64,000 nucleotides of DNA, taken from the NCBI GenBank assembly GCA_963813715.1, contig CAWFAK010000005.1, positions 192,001 to 256,000 of the forward strand, in the 5' to 3' direction. Shown here piece by piece: positions 34,717 through 61,296 of this stretch (position 1 is the stretch's first letter; each line of letters starts with the position of its first letter). The notes beneath the pieces were generated by a model that had not been told where the DNA came from, ran no database searches, and saw only the letters and a program-made list of their open reading frames with translations. Made by a program: the position numbers and the translations under genes. The stretch is from an uncultured Planctomycetaceae bacterium. Lineage in GTDB: Bacteria; Planctomycetota; Planctomycetia; Planctomycetales; Planctomycetaceae.

Positions 34717-34779
34717 ATCCCGCGCTCACGCTTCGGGTTAGTAAATTCTCCGGACCAACCCGAAGCGTCAGGGAGGGAT
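34717..34779. repeat. Inverted REP pair (aacccgaagcgt[c/g]ag..[a/c]ggga family)
   Basis: atcccgcgctcacgcttcgggtt and aacccgaagcgtcagggagggat; relatives at about 55285 and 57257. Confidence 0.75.
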
Positions 34780-55192: not shown

Positions 55193-55396
55193 GGGTGGCA
55201 CTGGCGGCTTGCCCGCCAGTGTCCGGGATTCAGCGTCTTAGCTCCGCCAGGCCCTCGCGATGCGTCGGGTTGAGACTTCCGACCAACCCGAAGCGTGAGG
55301 GACGGAAGCAACACGAATTCTCGGCCATTGGCTTAGCTGCCAGCGCCGAGCGTAACGACTAAAAACCACTGGCGGACAAGCCGCCAGTGCCACCCC
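55193..55396. repeat. REP cluster upstream of aspS
   Basis: Outer inverted pair ggtggcactggcggcttgcccgccagtg / cactggcggacaagccgccagtgccacc encloses an aacccga.gc-family pair. Confidence 0.8.
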
Positions 55397-55435
55397 GGAT
55401 GGAAGAACACTTCCGGGTTGATTAAGGATTGTCCT

Positions 55436-57210
<1,775 letters not shown>

Positions 57211-57270
57211 CTGCGCCCGGCGAGCGTCGGGCGTCAGCCCGATGGTGCTCGATACCAACCCGAAGCGTGA

Positions 57271-58253
57271 CAGCTTTTTGCGCGAGGAGTCATAAAGACT
57301 TGCGCAATAAAAAGTTGGTGCTACACATAGTCTCAATCGTAACCACACGAAAGGAGACGGATGTGGAACACCAACTCTGGAAGGCGATTTTGATCCTTCT
57401 CAAACAGGCGAGCAAGCGTCGTCGGCGCACGCGAGAACGATACGGGGCAGACGACATTGTGCAGGTTTGGCTGTGGGCCGTTCTGCACGGTCGGCCTGTG
57501 TCCTGGGCGTGCGATCTTCGGAACTGGCCGCTGCATGAGCGTCGCCGCAAATTGCCATCGTCGAGCACCATGTCGAGACGACTGCGGAGTGCCGAGGTCC
57601 AGCAAATGCTGCAAGAGATCGAACGTTCTGAACTGGCTCCTCGTGGGAACAAACCCCTGTATTGGATGATCGATGGCAAGCCTCTGCCGATCGGCGGTTG
57701 CTCGAAAGACCGGCAAGCTGGGTACGGCCGCGCCGCGGGCTGCAAAGCCAAAGGGTACAAGCTACACGCGGTGGTCGGCAGCGATGGCTCGATCGCTGCC
57801 TGGCGCGTGGCTCCCATGCAAAAGGATGAGCGGGCGATGGGGCGGCGGATGTTGAAGCAAGCGGCTGTGCAAGGGTACTTGCTCGCCGATGCAAATTTCG
57901 ACTCGAACCAGTTACACGACGTCTGCCTCGAACGCGGCGTGCAACTGGTGGCACCTCCGCGTTACGGATTTGGCCGTCGCCGTGGCCATCGGCGTCAGAG
58001 TCCCGCTCGGCTGCGATCTCTTGAACTGCTCTCGAATCCGCAAAGCTCGTTCGGCCGTGCCCTCCATCAAGAACGTAACGCGATCGAACGCTACTTCGGA
58101 TACTTGAGCACTTGGAGCGCCGGATTGCAGGCACTGCCCGCTTGGGTTCGCGGCCACCGACGCGTCCACCGCTGGGTGCAAGGCAAGCTCATCTTTACCG
58201 CCTTGCGACGGCGATGCCAAAAAACGACTTACGTCACGAGATGAAAAAAGTTG
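57271..58253 (+). mobile_element. IS element A (about 0.98 kb) inserted in an aacccgaagcgt(c/g)agcgaggga REP
   Basis: Ends cagcttttt / aaaaaagttg form an imperfect IR; flanks gtga / gtca; joining the flanks rebuilds the REP. Confidence 0.8.
57363..58244 (+). CDS. DDE transposase (DDE_Tnp_1-like; IS982/IS4/IS5-like)
   Basis: IDGKPL, GYKLH, LADANFD, RNAIERYF; AAGGAG RBS; frame intact. Confidence 0.88.
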   Translation: MEHQLWKAILILLKQASKRRRRTRERYGADDIVQVWLWAVLHGRPVSWACDLRNWPLHERRRKLPSSSTMSRRLRSAEVQQMLQEIERSELAPRGNKPLYWMIDGKPLPIGGCSKDRQAGYGRAAGCKAKGYKLHAVVGSDGSIAAWRVAPMQKDERAMGRRMLKQAAVQGYLLADANFDSNQLHDVCLERGVQLVAPPRYGFGRRRGHRRQSPARLRSLELLSNPQSSFGRALHQERNAIERYFGYLSTWSAGLQALPAWVRGHRRVHRWVQGKLIFTALRRRCQKTTYVTR

Positions 58254-58294
58254 GTCAGCGAGGGATCTTCGTATTTCCTCGGTCCCAAGCTCCC

Positions 58295-59276
58295 GAGCAT
58301 TTTTCATGAATTGACGTAAGTTCGTGTCGAGGCCCGCTTGATTGCGTTGAGAATCAGCTTCGCCTGCACCCAACGGTGAACTCTTCGGTGAGTGCGGACC
58401 CAAGGCGGCAGGTGCGTGAGTCCGCCTCCCCAATTGGTCAGATTCGCGAGGGATCGTTCGATGGTGTTCCGGAGCAGCATCAGGTCTCTCGCGAATTGCG
58501 GGTTCGGATTGTCAAACAGTTCGGCGGCCCGTCTTCGTCCGAGGCTCATTTTGGGTCGTCGGGACTCACACTTGCGGCCACCACGCAAGGGCGCCACGAG
58601 TTGAAGATCACCGCGCCGGCACAAACCTCGTGAAGTGGATTGGAGTCGTAGTTGGCATCGGCCAAGAGGTAGCCCTGGATGTCGGCTGTTCGCACCATGC
58701 GACGAGCCATCACCCGCTCGTCTTTGTTCATGGGCGCGATCCGCCAGGCGGCGACAAGCCCGTCAATTCCCTGGATTAAGTGCAGTTTATAACCCCGAGC
58801 GTTGCCGCGCTGGGCACGGCCAAATCCCGCCTGACGATCGCCGCTTGCGCCGCTCACTATCAGAGGTTTTCCGTCGATGACCCAAACCAGCGGCTTGTTG
58901 TCGGAAGGCTCGAAGACTGTCTGCTCCAAGACCGTGATCAAGCCCTGAACCTCCGGGTCGCGAAGTCTTCGACTCATCGTGCTGGAGGATGGAAGCGTTC
59001 GTCGCCTTTCGTGGATCGGCCAATTCGCTTTCAAAGTCGCCCAGAAGACCGGACGGTCGTGCACAACCGCCCAAAACCAGACCGCCGATGTCCTCGACGC
59101 TGAATTTCTCCCTCGCCCGACGCCTCGGCTTGTGCATCTCCTTCAACAGTCGCCAAATCGCCTTCCAGAGTTGGTCTTCCATGACCCCCCTCCTGCTTGT
59201 ATGGAAACAACAAAGGGCATCATCGAAGCCAACTCGTTTTTACGCAAGGCCTAACGTCGGTTCATGCAAAATCCTC
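58295..59276 (-). mobile_element. IS element B (paralogue of A) inserted in the left arm of a REPIN
   Basis: 26-bp IRs with 21/26 matches; 4-bp direct repeat tccc at 58291-58294 and 59277-59280. Confidence 0.85.
58304..59182 (-). CDS. DDE transposase, split over three frames
   Basis: MEDQLWKAI, IDGKPL, GYKLH, LADANYDSN, RNTIER, LPPWVRTHRRVHRWVQAKLI; collinear with transposase A. Confidence 0.8.
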
Positions 59277-59381
59277 TCCCGCTTGGGACCGCAGTCAACC
59301 GAAGCTCCGCTTCGGCCAGTCCGCGTTGGAGCCGACGATCGAAGCAGGAGCTTCGAGGGGATGCGTTCCCAAGCGGAGCTT

Positions 59382-60565
59382 GAGGGTGTCCGGGAATTGA
59401 ATTGAGCTAAACCCAAGGGCCTCCGGGCGTTTATGTTTTTTCTGCCAAGAAGAAACTAAACGCCGCAGGAGGGCCCAAGGATGGGAACTCGTGCCAAGGC
59501 CGGCACGTCGTTGGAAGCGTTGGTCAAGCTGGCGATGCCGCTTTTGAGGGAAGCCGAGCGGCAATGTCCGAGAACAGGGCCGGGAGCAAAGCCGATCATT
59601 CCGGACTGGTTCGTCGGAGTGTTGATTATGGTGGCTGTGCTGAAACGAAAGAAGACCAAGTCCGCCCAATTTCGTTTCGTAACCGACAGCGCGAACCGGC
59701 ACAGATTCGAGACCTCACCGGAGAAAAGCAGTTTCCCTCGCGAAGCACGTTTTTCAGTCGGTATCGACGCTGTCATCGGCTCTTTACGGAGGCCATCAAG
59801 CGGCAAGGGCAGCAAGCGATCGCGGAGCAGATCGTCGACGCCAGCCAGGTCGCGGTGGACAAGAGCCTGGTTCCCGCCCGAGGTCGTCCGTGGCACAAGC
59901 ACGAAAAGGAACAGGGGAAGATTCCCCGGGGTGTGGATCGCGAGGCGGCGTGGGGCTACTCCGAACATCACGGCTGGGTCTACGGCTACAGCTTCGAGGT
60001 GGTGGTCTCTTGCAAGCGGAAAAACACGGTGTTTCCGCTGCTGGCTTCGGTGGGAACCGGGAGCGCCGCGGAGGTGCGAACGTTCGCGGAAAAAATTGAC
60101 CATTTACCGCGTGAAGTGAAATGCGTCTCAGTGGATGCGCCTACGACGCAGGTTACCTCGGTGAGCGCATCGAATTTGATCAGGCAGGGCGGCGGACCGG
60201 CCGTCGCTTCTTGTGTCCCGAAAATCCCCGCTACCCTCGCAAAAAGACCAAGCGCTGCGGGGCCGACGCGGCGCAGGCCCACGGCCGCGAGCTGCGACGA
60301 GCCAGAAAGAAGTACTTCGAGAGCGCCGCCGGGCGACGCCTCTATCGACGGCGCAGCCGCACGGTCGAGCCCTTCAACAGCTGGTTGAAGTCACTCTTCG
60401 AACTGGACACGCGTGCGTGGCATCGCGGACTCGTCAACAACCAAACTCAGATCCTTGCCGCCATCTTCGTGTATCAATTGCTTGTGCGATACAACCACCG
60501 CTGCGGAAACAACAACGGACGACTTCGTTGGCTCACCGATGCCCTCTGAATTCCCGGACACCCTC
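59382..60565 (+). mobile_element. IS element C (about 1.18 kb) inserted in the right arm of the same REPIN
   Basis: Perfect 17-bp IR gagggtgtccgggaatt; 11-bp direct repeat aagcggagctt on both sides. The TIR/TSD boundary is ambiguous because the target ends are palindromic. Confidence 0.9.
59481..60549 (+). CDS. DDE transposase, frameshifted twice
   Basis: VAVDKSL, AAWGYS..HGWVYGY, D.AYDA, LYRRRSRTVEPFNSWLK; AGGAGG RBS. Confidence 0.8.
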
Positions 60566-60614
60566 AAGCGGAGCTTGGGAACGAGGAAAGTGCGACCTGC
60601 ATCCCCGCGAGGGA

Positions 60615-61136
60615 TCACTGCGGTCGGTCTGTCCGCGCCAACTGCTCGACTGCATTCTTGCGCAGAATTGGGTCATCGGACTGTGTCAGCCGCTCCAGCT
60701 TCGCGTTGGTCAGACTGCACGGCAGGTTTCCAAGCCCCCAGATTGCCTTTACCGCCAGCGCCCTCGCCTCGTCATAGTCAAGGTACTCGGGAATCCACTG
60801 AGTCGCGAGAAACAGAGCATCAACTGCGGCGGGGGTCCGCAAGTCGTCTAACGCACTAACCACGTCTTCATGAGACGCATGCCAATCTTCGTCGACCAAT
60901 GGGCAGAGAGTCTGAACTTGTTCGGGACGAAAGCCAAACACAAAACCAACGATCAGCGCGCATAACAAATCATCAGCGTCCCGCGCCGCGCACGCTTGTT
61001 CGAGGAGGTGCGAAGCGACTTTGCCCTGCTCCACAGCAGATGGAAAGCGCTGGAGAAAATCTTCGCTGGAAATCCTGCAAGTGCCGTCGGGCTGGGTAAC
61101 GAGGCCCCAACAAAGCTCTCGTTCCTCGTCAGTCAT
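60615..61136 (-). CDS. HEAT-repeat-like hypothetical protein
   Basis: EDWHASHEDVVSAL...AVDAL...ALAVKAIWGLG; more AT-rich codons. Confidence 0.6.
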   Translation of the reverse strand: MTDEERELCWGLVTQPDGTCRISSEDFLQRFPSAVEQGKVASHLLEQACAARDADDLLCALIVGFVFGFRPEQVQTLCPLVDEDWHASHEDVVSALDDLRTPAAVDALFLATQWIPEYLDYDEARALAVKAIWGLGNLPCSLTNAKLERLTQSDDPILRKNAVEQLARTDRPQ

Positions 61137-61296
61137 TCGCGGCTTCCTATCGTCGCTCGGCATCGTCGAAGCCGCGTAGCTCCAGATCCTGAGCACTGCC
61201 ATCAAGCCAACACAGCCCAAATCCACAACGAGTCTCGAACAAAGCTGCGGGGGAGCCATAAAGCGGCCCGGCCGAGCCGTCTGACGCCCGCCCTAG

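Follow-up and report, generated by a model that had tools for sequence, protein, structure and literature searches.

Three PF01609 insertion sequences in a planctomycetal repeat cluster and the probable sequence-specific choice of their target repeats

Three insertion sequences with inverted ends, each encoding a DDE_Tnp_1 (PF01609) transposase, were identified side by side in the window (the whole analysed stretch of 64,000 nucleotides), at 57271-58253 (IS-A), 58295-59276 (IS-B) and 59381-60566 (IS-C). The original prediction of three DDE insertion sequences at this place was thereby confirmed, and excising each element along with a single duplication copy rebuilt the uninterrupted sequences that had been proposed. 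It is probable that each of the three elements targets its own repeat by sequence-specific recognition of a dyad-symmetric site. They would have entered the cluster independently, each transposase choosing its own repeat as target, and would now be piled up side by side after aspS because each homes on a particular short repeat.

Three elements in one repeat cluster

The host site of IS-A, IS-B and IS-C is an intergenic repeat cluster of ~250 bp after aspS, with convergent genes on either side. In its empty form the cluster combines a single REP1 unit with a module of ~130 bp that ends in two REP2 hairpins. This module was rebuilt in silico and is present in the genome in ~3 full and ~5 half copies. 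The features of the occupied cluster are as follows.

57257..57270, + strand: long arm of REP1 (57257-57266) and left duplication copy GTGA (57267-57270); the same half is found at this side in 5/9 IS-A copies
57271..58253, + strand: IS-A, 983 bp, imperfect inverted ends CAGC...GTTG; nine copies have exactly this span
57363..58244, + strand: intact IS-A transposase gene, GTG start, 293 aa; Pfam DDE_Tnp_1 1.4e-12, DDE_Tnp_1_3 6.3e-7
58254..58264, + strand: right duplication copy GTCA, with one mismatch (58254-58257), and short arm of REP1 (58258-58264)
58281..58294, + strand: REP2 hairpin 1, left arm (58281-58290) and loop/duplication copy TCCC (58291-58294); direct repeat 4/4, arms 7/7
58295..59276, - strand: IS-B, 982 bp, a paralogue of IS-A with its transposase gene in at least three frames
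59277..59290, + strand: TCCC again (59277-59280), followed by the right arm of REP2 hairpin 1 (59281-59290)
59299..59356, no strand: two smaller CGAAGC-stem hairpins (59299-59315 and 59339-59356) in the interior of the ~130-bp module
59365..59380, + strand: left arm of REP2 hairpin 2, including the left 9-bp duplication copy AGCGGAGCT (59372-59380)
59381..60566, + strand: IS-C, 1186 bp, ends TGAGGG...CCCTCA; the window transposase gene is frameshifted
60567..60582, + strand: right 9-bp duplication copy (60567-60575) and remainder of the right arm of REP2 hairpin 2

Contigs from four soil metagenomes stop exactly at 57271/58253 and at 58295/59276, which supports the boundaries of IS-A and IS-B. 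One contig of 983 nt spans IS-A end to end (57271-58253), and another of 986 nt covers 58295-59276 with single-base insertions at 58617, 59082 and 59085. None of the metagenome contigs at the window locus joins across any of the three elements; a contig that skips from 59276 to 60570 represents a junction belonging to another IS-B copy, and 60652-60900 is without contig cover. The ends of IS-C, which are uncertain by at most 3 nt because the flank is palindromic, were fixed from relatives inserted at non-palindromic sites.

In the region after aspS, which is not syntenic among 11 genomes of the genus, no orthologous empty site for the window copies was found, and G007 is the only one of these genomes with an intact REP1 pair there. 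The flanks of five copies from a second genome, G002, map to this genome, and the intergenic repeats at these positions are of other types. Therefore, no direct before/after pair is available.

Target sites of the elements and of their relatives

IS-A is present in nine genome copies of 97.8-100% identity, all of which split a 21-bp REP1 unit at the identical 4 bp. Relative to the asymmetric REP1, the copies lie in both orientations (5 vs 4), the DNA outside the repeat is unrelated between copies, and the 4-bp duplications are perfect in five of them. Among the three elements, exceptions to a clean split at the same position are a truncated IS-A copy (C8:42864), one junction on C7 with a 1-nt deletion and the IS-B copy on C7 described below. 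In the 7.49-Mb genome 59 intact, unoccupied REP1 units could be identified, corresponding to ~0.02% of the genome; three shuffled patterns, used as a control, gave 0 matches each. Three intact units lie in the window, at 34719-34739 (-), 34757-34777 (+) and 55285-55305 (+), compared to 0.01 expected, in agreement with the intact relatives predicted at 34717-34779 and ~55285. The transposase has D104, D176 and R238 invariant and E242 nearly so in an alignment of 20 sequences, and would recognise the REP1 unit and cut it with a 4-bp stagger at its middle (GTSA), which would result in the 4-bp duplication.

REP1 units form 15 inverted pairs with a spacer of ~17 nt, and such a pair has a DNA fold of -21.8 kcal/mol (z -5.76). 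A single unit folds no better than shuffled sequences (z -0.46 and +0.28), and the insertion point shows weak local dyad symmetry only (GC-N4-GC). Since REP1 occurs as inverted pairs, IS-A sits in the middle of an arm of the pair and not at a hairpin centre; within the fold of the pair, its 4 nt fall inside the long stem, not in the loop. Eight PF01797 matches were found in the genome (82.6% complete), and none of them, as a possible RAYT adjoining REP1, has a REP1 unit within 1.5 kb.

IS-B and IS-A are 61-62% paralogues. The transposase gene of the window copy of IS-B is frameshifted, and its translated match to the IS-A protein falls into pieces of 61% and 47% identity. IS-B is inserted in the 4-nt loop of a hairpin with a CCCAAGC stem (REP2). 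CCCAAGC/GCTTGGG arms flank both IS-B copies of this genome (2/2), the second of which (C7:471825-472804) has flanks of the 'inverted' type described below, and all related copies in G002 (5/5). The loops at these sites vary and read TCCC, GGGA or, with a 5-nt repeat, the 5-nt CGACG. The IS-B transposase would cut at both stem-loop junctions of the CCCAAGC hairpin, and it is proposed that the duplication equals the loop for this reason.

IS-C lies at the apex of the second REP2 hairpin, bounded by two identical 9-mers that form its 9-bp duplication. An intact form of 356 aa is encoded at G000 C14:31924-32991 (Pfam DDE_Tnp_1 1.4e-9, and DDE_Tnp_1_6), and the transposase shows no relationship to the IS-A protein (BLASTP E 1.2). 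REP2 arms were read at 4/4 left and 5/5 right IS-C junctions in this genome, and across three genomes of the genus 4/4 left and 10/10 right junctions share the arms while the loops vary. The transposase would in this case cut 3 bp into each arm of a CCCAAGC-type hairpin, so that a duplication of 3 + loop + 3 = 9 bp would be formed.

The REP2 hairpins at the IS-B and IS-C sites have DNA folds of -9.8 and -14.7 kcal/mol (z -5.5 and -7.1, respectively). REP2 is a low-copy repeat, with 5 exact CCCAAGC-loop-GCTTGGG sites in the genome and, in another count, 4 with a loop of 3-5 nt; 10 free exact sites are present in G002 and 3 in G007. The original prediction had placed all three insertions at the centre of a REP hairpin. 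This holds for IS-B and IS-C, which occupy true hairpins, and not for IS-A, as the REP1 unit forms none; REP1, with its many units, folds as an inverted pair and not as a single unit, and REP2 folds well but has only five exact free copies, so that both are candidate REPs.

For the IS-A/B family, 40 junction pairs from 9 Planctomycetota genomes or MAGs were compared with 200,000 random positions. At least 2 closing pairs beside the 4 nt were found in 37/40 junction pairs (7% of random positions) and at least 5/7 paired arm positions in 27/40 (1.9%), counts that do not represent independent events because copies within one genome share REP families. A direct duplication is present in 25 junction pairs, with closing pairs in 24/25. 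Relatives of IS-A in other genomes, with transposases 45-60% identical, have their 4-nt duplication between complementary arms; an exception is L066, a relative whose clean 4-bp duplication has no palindrome around it. The element of G019 occupies four sites with four differing arm sequences, in which pairing is kept through changes on both sides. Together with the nine IS-A copies in REP1, the relatives with 45-60% identical transposases support the suggestion that such elements form REP- or hairpin-targeting groups.

For the IS-C family this could be extended only in part. At 49 metagenome loci with both flanks, manual reading identified CCCAnGC arms on both sides in 13/49 and on one side in 3/49, and 33/49 lie at AT-rich sites without a hairpin; hairpin targeting is therefore not a trait of the whole family. 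By automatic scoring, a stem of 6 or more at the detected duplication was obtained in 5/49 only (control 1.2%); many hairpin sites are without a clean direct repeat, and the counts given here are therefore those of the manual reading. The arms are of the types CCCAAGC, CCCAGGC, CCCACGC and CCCATGC, each with its matching partner arm. Loops of 3 nt (L128, L129, L189) go with a 9-bp duplication, and a loop of 4 nt (L134) with one of 10 bp. Relatives at non-palindromic sites have the ends TGAGGG/CCCTCA and their own duplications of 6-10 bp. Among the at most six candidates scored per genome in those searched of 300 other genomes of the phylum, no IS-C was found at E 1e-40. In 72,556 plasmid records, a translated search with the IS-A protein gave no match at 1e-8, and for IS-C one Spirosoma record with a 30%-identical 'transposase' was identified.

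Sequence and structure in target choice

The insertion positions and duplications, the statistics over copies and the conservation among relatives being established, the recognition mode and the oligomeric state of the transposases may be inferred. A two-fold symmetric transposase complex would read the duplex arm sequences on both sides and cut at fixed distances; palindromy would then belong to the REP itself, and hairpin extrusion would not be required. Target choice looks sequence-specific: 977 perfect hairpins with a 7-bp stem and a 4-nt loop, a 123-copy CTGGCGG hairpin and 12,674 other GC-N4-GC sites with at least 5/7 paired arm positions are all left unused by IS-A. The original prediction had favoured recognition of structure rather than sequence, which is not supported in view of these unused sites and of the constant arms and varying loops at IS-B and IS-C sites. 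Structure recognition, in which the transposase binds an extruded hairpin or cruciform, or a single-stranded fork hairpin, and inserts at its tip largely regardless of sequence, is considered unlikely. It would agree with a duplication that equals the loop and follows its length (5 nt in L008; L134 vs L128/L129/L189), and such tracking (4 vs 5 nt; 9 vs 10 bp) comes more naturally to a hairpin-reading enzyme than to a rigid duplex-reading dimer. The differing arm sequences at the four G019 sites count against a reading of arm sequence, and with their preserved pairing they speak for structure, as do the four arm types of the IS-C relatives and the sharing of one hairpin by two unrelated transposases, those of IS-C and of the IS-A-type IS-B. 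IS1272 targets also differ in sequence, and recognition of structure is proposed in the accessible part of the report on this element (PMC5678879). However, paired arm changes are expected from the evolution of the REPs themselves and so cannot separate the two models, and structure recognition does not account for the exclusive use by IS-A of REP1, a unit that by itself folds no better than shuffles and whose cut 4 nt lie in the stem of the pair.

Sequence-specific targeting also has to be weighed against two readings without any targeting. If the repeat halves were part of the elements, as long terminal inverted repeats carried by each copy, the same arms on every IS-B-type and IS-C copy, the low number of free REP2 sites and, in the 'inverted' class, flanks that perfectly extend the terminal repeat would follow. 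This is very improbable and, for IS-A, already contradicted: because the element lies in both orientations on the asymmetric REP1, either end can carry either half. Half-REP flanks thus do not travel with IS-A, as is also seen from the unrelated outer DNA and the 59 free REP1 units. Moreover, copies of 99% identity have dissimilar loops and outer stem bases, the sequence beyond the arms shows no duplication, and the IS-C relatives at non-palindromic sites end at TGAGGG/CCCTCA, inside duplications of their own. Random insertion with copies persisting only in neutral repeat DNA, hence selection and not targeting, would fit the intergenic position of REP clusters, where insertions are harmless, and of the window cluster between convergent genes. 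Selection cannot produce the single-nucleotide precision with which 9/9 IS-A copies occupy one and the same 4-bp site of so rare a repeat, and intergenic DNA outside the repeats is unused; this reading is held to be extremely improbable.

Targeting of a single repeat unit by simple insertion does not predict the inverted flanks seen in about a third of the copies. By a 4-nt rule, 13/40 junction pairs of the IS-A/B family were classed as 'inverted', the right 4 nt being the reverse complement of the left. Among these, L008 proves to be a direct repeat of 5 nt; two further pairs fall in neither class. Similar flanks occur among IS-C relatives (L122, L142, L164, L175). A long perfect palindrome as the target of these copies was rejected, as the 8-nt loop it needs is absent from 18 free CCCAAGC...GCTTGGG sites (loops of 2-14 nt, three genomes). 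A second insertion mode, as opposed to later recombination, is doubtful: the two ends of the element would attack both units of a REP pair, or both hairpins at the ends of the ~130-bp module, with the element taking the place of the intervening DNA, so that the same repeat half (e.g. long arm and loop) would bound both sides. If true, the 'inverted-repeat-replacing' transposition suggested for IS1272 would here have a counterpart defined by sequence, and these elements would erase and remodel REP pairs. A pair of direct copies, as at C8:42367-43846, would instead speak for two insertions followed by a deletion.

Family placement and comparison with known systems

With a gathering cut-off of 23 bits, PF01609 scores were 48.2 for IS-A, 38.4 for the intact copy of IS-C and 23.3 for the IS-B fragment, all above the cut-off, and the predicted DDE_Tnp_1-type classification was thereby upheld. 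We take Transposase_11 to be the older name of this family. All scores against curated insertion sequence models were below the cut-offs: 52.2 (IS-A) and 31.2 bits (IS-C) for IS982 (NCBIfam NF033520, cut-off 130), and 37.1, 29.7 and 16.4 bits (IS-A) for IS5 (NF033580, NF033579 and NF033581, cut-offs 110-140). For IS1182 (NF033551, cut-off 270 bits, protein of ~490 aa), IS-C (356 aa) scored 54.1 bits in the C-terminal part only and IS-A 36.4; with 54 bits against 270, IS-C is therefore not a member of IS1182 by NCBI's model.

IS-A resembles IS982 and IS5 elements in its length of ~1 kb, its single ORF of ~290 aa and its DDE_Tnp_1/DDE_Tnp_1_3 domains, and these are the best curated matches of its protein, but its 52 and 37 bits compare with cut-offs of 130 and 110. 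A literature search that combined IS982 with target site duplications and palindromes returned no pertinent account. For the IS-C protein, the best curated match is the model of IS1182, the family of IS1272, and its C-terminal domain is DDE_Tnp_1_6. As far as the accessible part of the IS1272 report goes, this staphylococcal IS1182-family element enters inverted-repeat/stem-loop structures, with flanks that are not simple direct duplications; its targets, of 21-85 bp, are heterogeneous in sequence as well as size, it makes no duplication, and replacement of the target repeat was proposed (PMC5678879). IS-C, in contrast, has one arm sequence and a 9-bp duplication.

The elements described here have all copies in the repeat, broken at the same position, with repeat flanks outside their own inverted repeats, which corresponds to the 'type 1 association' of insertion sequences with REPs (Tobes and Pareja, 2006; PMC1525189). 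The original prediction had named some IS110 and IS3 elements as known REP-targeting insertion sequences. This list was too short, since the accessible part of the same paper also lists IS4-, IS5- and IS256-family elements, including ISRm22 with a Transposase_11 domain. ISRm22 of Sinorhizobium meliloti 1021, a DDE element listed under IS4, inserts at the REP palindromy axis and makes a 6-bp repeat (PMC1525189). Every copy lies in a REP at one axis position, the direct repeat is formed by the palindrome centre, and several copies have imperfect repeats, ascribed by the authors to recombination between copies (PMC1525189). Its repeat of 6 bp differs from the 4 bp of IS-A and IS-B and the 9 bp of IS-C, and its host belongs to a different phylum. 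No sequence relationship to ISRm22 was detected via the 72,556 plasmid records, a collection that may lack an ISRm22 copy. For IS1397, ISKpn1 and ISPsy8 (IS3) and for ISPpu9, ISPpu10, ISPa11 and IS621 (IS110), every copy is likewise described as lying within a REP and always at one fixed point; ISPsy8 makes a 3-bp repeat and enters a predicted hairpin on its axis of symmetry (PMC1525189). However, according to the accessible parts of the sources, IS3 elements encode two-ORF DDE enzymes and IS110 elements DEDD recombinases guided by bridge/seek RNA (PMC11208160, PMC11187229), whereas IS-A, IS-B and IS-C each have one PF01609 ORF, preceded by a leader of 92-100 nt, and no long non-coding region.

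REP-axis targeting by PF01609 elements is thus already published (ISRm22; IS1272), and no new mechanism is shown here. New is the extension of this behaviour to two as yet unclassified transposase lineages (PF01609) of soil Planctomycetota, both common in soil metagenomes (3410 homologues of the IS-A protein, most of 292-294 aa, and 1618 of the second, IS-C lineage) and both under every curated IS-family cut-off tried. It explains differences in repeat clusters between close relatives in the genus. The sites form a natural series, in which the loops measure 3, 4 or 5 nt and the arms change in step, and so offer a test set for deciding whether such transposases read sequence or shape.

The aspS locus and its three elements

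The window corresponds to C5:192001-256000 of the source genome. The aspS ORF ends at position 57210 and the next gene in the ORF listing lies on the opposite strand at 60615-61259. The space between them is filled by three elements with inverted ends:

57271-58253: IS-A, ends CAGC...GTTG, intact gene of 293 aa with a GTG start at 57363
58295-59276, minus strand: IS-B, paralogous gene in pieces over three frames
59381-60566: IS-C, gene split over three frames

The IS-A protein matched Pfam DDE_Tnp_1 (1.4e-12) and DDE_Tnp_1_3 (6.3e-7), and IS-B could be aligned to it piecewise with 61% and 47% identity. An IS-C copy on contig C14 of the source genome (G000) carries an intact gene of 356 aa with matches to DDE_Tnp_1 (1.4e-9) and DDE_Tnp_1_6 (3.5e-6, Pfam); similarity between the IS-C and IS-A proteins was not detectable by BLASTP (E 1.2). 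Neither protein reached a curated IS-family cut-off in NCBIfam: IS-A scored 52 bits for IS982 (cut-off 130), 37 for IS5 (110) and 36 for IS1182 (270), and IS-C 54 bits for IS1182 (270) and 31 for IS982 (130). Both belong to large, unnamed families, with 3410 (IS-A) and 1618 (IS-C) metagenome homologues at E up to 0.001. The listed aspS ORF (55429-57210) begins at TTG, but the ~130 residues that follow are rich in arginine and proline and not synthetase-like; the true start is probably located further downstream.

Matches to this stretch, mainly to its three elements, were found in soil metagenome runs from 14 studies, and contigs of four of these runs (X1-X4), each from a different study, were aligned to the window; such contigs report presence only. 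One contig spans exactly 57271-58253 (IS-A), another 58295-59276 (IS-B), and two span 59378-60568 or 60569 (IS-C). Single-base insertions relative to the window were observed in all four runs at 58617, 59082 and 59085 in IS-B, at 60136 in IS-C and at 59700 or 59701, so that the window copies of IS-B and IS-C are either decayed or affected by assembly errors. Contigs of X2 and X3 skip the interior of IS-B (58342-59212; 869 nt missing, with two other letters between) and of IS-C (59400-60548; 1147 nt missing), and short, gene-less (MITE-like) derivatives of both seem to exist in soils.

Insertion sites in the source genome

G000 contains nine full-length IS-A copies and one partial copy, which are 97.8-100% identical. 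In eight of the nine, both junctions lie inside one unit of the 21-bp repeat REP1; the ninth (C8:42864) is truncated on its left side by the partial copy and has a REP1 half on the right. The long arm is on the left in five copies and the short arm in four, and beyond the unit the flanking DNA is unrelated from one copy to another. The 4-bp flanking repeats are perfect in five cases, carry one mismatch in two (including the window copy, GTGA vs GTCA) and a 1-nt deletion in one. REP1 occurs in 10 exact copies and in 59 at ≤3 mismatches, compared with 0 for each of three shuffled patterns at ≤3 mismatches, and the three intact copies originally noted in the window were recovered at their places. 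REP1 is a real repeat with a fixed insertion point.

Fifteen inverted REP1 pairs were identified, all with the short arms outward, separated by 13-18 nt in 13 pairs and by ~50 nt in two. When folded as DNA, a pair reached -21.8 kcal/mol (z -5.76), whereas single units did not fold (z -0.46 and +0.28). Therefore, the IS-A site lies mid-arm in a larger palindrome. The original prediction had placed all three elements at REP hairpin centres; for IS-A the repeat and the fixed point hold, and the hairpin tip is contradicted by the folding. Loose metagenome contig ends show the opposite half of REP1 beside IS-A in X1 and an unbroken unit in X4. At C8:42367-43846 a partial IS-A is followed, in direct orientation, by a near-full copy that is missing its initial 17 nt; just 17 nt from a REP1 half separate the two. 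Such an arrangement may represent an intermediate step in double insertion into adjacent repeat units. No REP1 unit lies within 1.5 kb of any of the eight Y1 (HUH) transposase genes of G000 (L114-L121).

IS-B is flanked, in window order, by a 10-bp arm and TCCC on one side and by TCCC and the complementary arm on the other, and IS-C by a similar hairpin (REP2, with a CCCAAGC stem). With the IS-C ends set to TGAGGG/CCCTCA from relatives at non-palindromic sites, its duplication is the 9-mer AGCGGAGCT, consisting of 3 bp from each arm and a 3-nt loop. Free REP2 hairpins folded as DNA at -9.8 and -14.7 kcal/mol. Free exact sites are few (five in G000, and ten and three in the congeneric genomes G002 and G007), and REP2 accounts for only 4 of 2980 perfect 7-bp-stem hairpins in G000. 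The commonest stem there, CTGGCGG (123 perfect copies with a 5-nt loop; in the window at 55200-55221 and 55368-55390), is used by none of these elements. Excision of IS-B and IS-C in silico yields a ~130-bp module of a REP2 hairpin, two CGAAGC hairpins and a second REP2 hairpin, present in G000 in ~3 full and ~5 half copies. The window contains one module with an element in each of its terminal hairpins.

The end of contig C7 (C7:1115819-1117125) and the start of C12 (C12:1-1314) have flank and repeat module in common, with IS-C copies 99% and 86% identical, respectively, to the window copy, explained either by duplication of the region or by the merging of two strains during assembly. G000 also holds four copies of a second IS-C-like element (~1.3 kb, 51% identical protein), flanked by another palindromic repeat. 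An additional repeat of the GGGTGCCATGCCCACGGC type lies close by. The four copies are:

C5:639883-640950: second IS-C-like element
C8:598193-599260: second IS-C-like element
C18:63237-64112: second IS-C-like element
C8:41405-42294: second IS-C-like element

Related elements and their flanks

Homologues of IS-A/B were present in 5 of 40 relatives' genomes searched, and a scan of species genomes yielded 26 loci, of which 25 are from Planctomycetota MAGs according to their titles. Element ends were defined by a short shared end motif and flanks were read at the stored loci, resulting in 40 junction pairs. One locus without ends, the truncated or contig-cut A_C8b, L054 and L055, and L006 stand outside this set; four of the 26 loci (L049, L059, L060, L063) were dropped because their sequences are identical to those of tabulated loci of G002 or G015, and L065 and L068 because they seem, from MAG and contig titles alone, to be further copies of L016 and L011.

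Pairing beside the 4 nt at IS-A/B-family junctions and at 200,000 random positions. Many junction pairs share one repeat family and are not independent; by our own reading they represent about a dozen element/repeat combinations.
Feature; junction pairs; random positions
At least 2 closing base pairs; 37/40; 7.0%
At least 5 of 7 arm positions paired; 27/40; 1.9%

By a 4-nt rule, 25 pairs were direct duplications, 13 'inverted' (left 4 nt reverse-complemented equal to the right 4 nt) and two neither, where L008, classed as inverted, in fact has all 5 nt of a 5-nt loop repeated directly and A_C7, classed as neither, is direct except for a 1-nt deletion. Direct sites include perfect 7-bp arms (e.g., L005, L014, L016, L044, L064), and L066 has a clean 4-bp duplication with no palindrome.

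In the inverted class, asymmetric repeats show the long arm on both flanks (L043, L046, L052, L057). At L046 and L052 the two sides differ beyond the repeat core, so each involves two different repeat units, which argues against a flank having been copied from one side to the other. The MAG that contains these two loci also has inverted unit pairs, seen in the flanks of L048 and L062, whose long arms face outward and whose spacer is ~6-7 nt; putting the element in place of the interior of such a pair gives the inverted form. Three routes could account for this class: recombination between copies that sit in units of different orientation, the route proposed for ISRm22; insertion into each of the two units with later deletion between the direct copies, of which C8:42367-43846 looks like an intermediate; or a single event in which the two element ends attack two units. 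These repeat sites are unstable, since an IS-B copy (C7:471825-472804) is flipped at its common locus in G002 (L002), and the REP2 at C7:1108416 holds IS-C in G000 and an IS-B-like element (L019) in G002, with a differing far flank. L019 itself is a 779-bp deleted copy.

For IS-C, five more right junctions in G007 and G010 showed the same arm with differing loops. The metagenome scan gave 80 family loci, 49 with both ends and flanks; by our own reading of the printed flanks, CCCAnGC-type arms occur on both sides in 13, on one side in three and on neither in 33. Where a duplication at a hairpin is clean, its length is 9 bp (L128, L129 and, with one mismatch, L189) or, at the 4-nt loop of L134, 10 bp. 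Non-hairpin relatives have 6-bp duplications at AT-rich sites (six loci), and one 85%-identical copy, L126, carries a duplication of 10 bp where the site is not palindromic. On these flanks, hairpin targeting is a property of only part of the IS-C family.

Target recognition and comparison with known elements

The original prediction favoured recognition of structure rather than sequence. Three observations speak for such a reading: the tracking of duplication length with loop length, an element in G019 found at four different arm sequences with pairing preserved, and the sharing of REP2 by two unrelated transposases. However, G000 offers 977 perfect hairpins with 7-bp stem and 4-nt loop and 12,674 GC-N4-GC sites whose arms pair at 5 or more of 7 positions, and IS-A is nonetheless found in REP1 in 9/9 copies, although REP1 pairs at only 4/7 arm positions and does not fold alone. 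In IS-B-type and IS-C copies, the arm sequence is constant while the loop varies. This confinement and the constant arms favour transposases that read the sequence of a dyad-symmetric site in duplex DNA, which is considered somewhat more likely than not; recognition of structure is considered unlikely.

REPs have been noted in Planctomycetes (Di Nocera et al., 2013, PMC3733652). A limited search of open-access literature found no account of IS982-like elements that target REPs, nor of REP targeting within Planctomycetota, which does not prove that there is none. REP targeting is described for the IS3, IS110, IS4, IS256 and IS5 families (Tobes and Pareja, 2006, PMC1525189), and IS1272 of the IS1182 family enters stem-loop targets (Wan et al., 2017, PMC5678879). 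All copies of ISRm22 lie in REPs, inserted on the axis of palindromy, with three of the repeats imperfect (PMC1525189); the 6-bp repeat described there as its feature differs from the 4 bp of IS-A and IS-B and the 9 bp of IS-C. The targeted insertion found here is real and well supported, and behaviour of this kind is already known.
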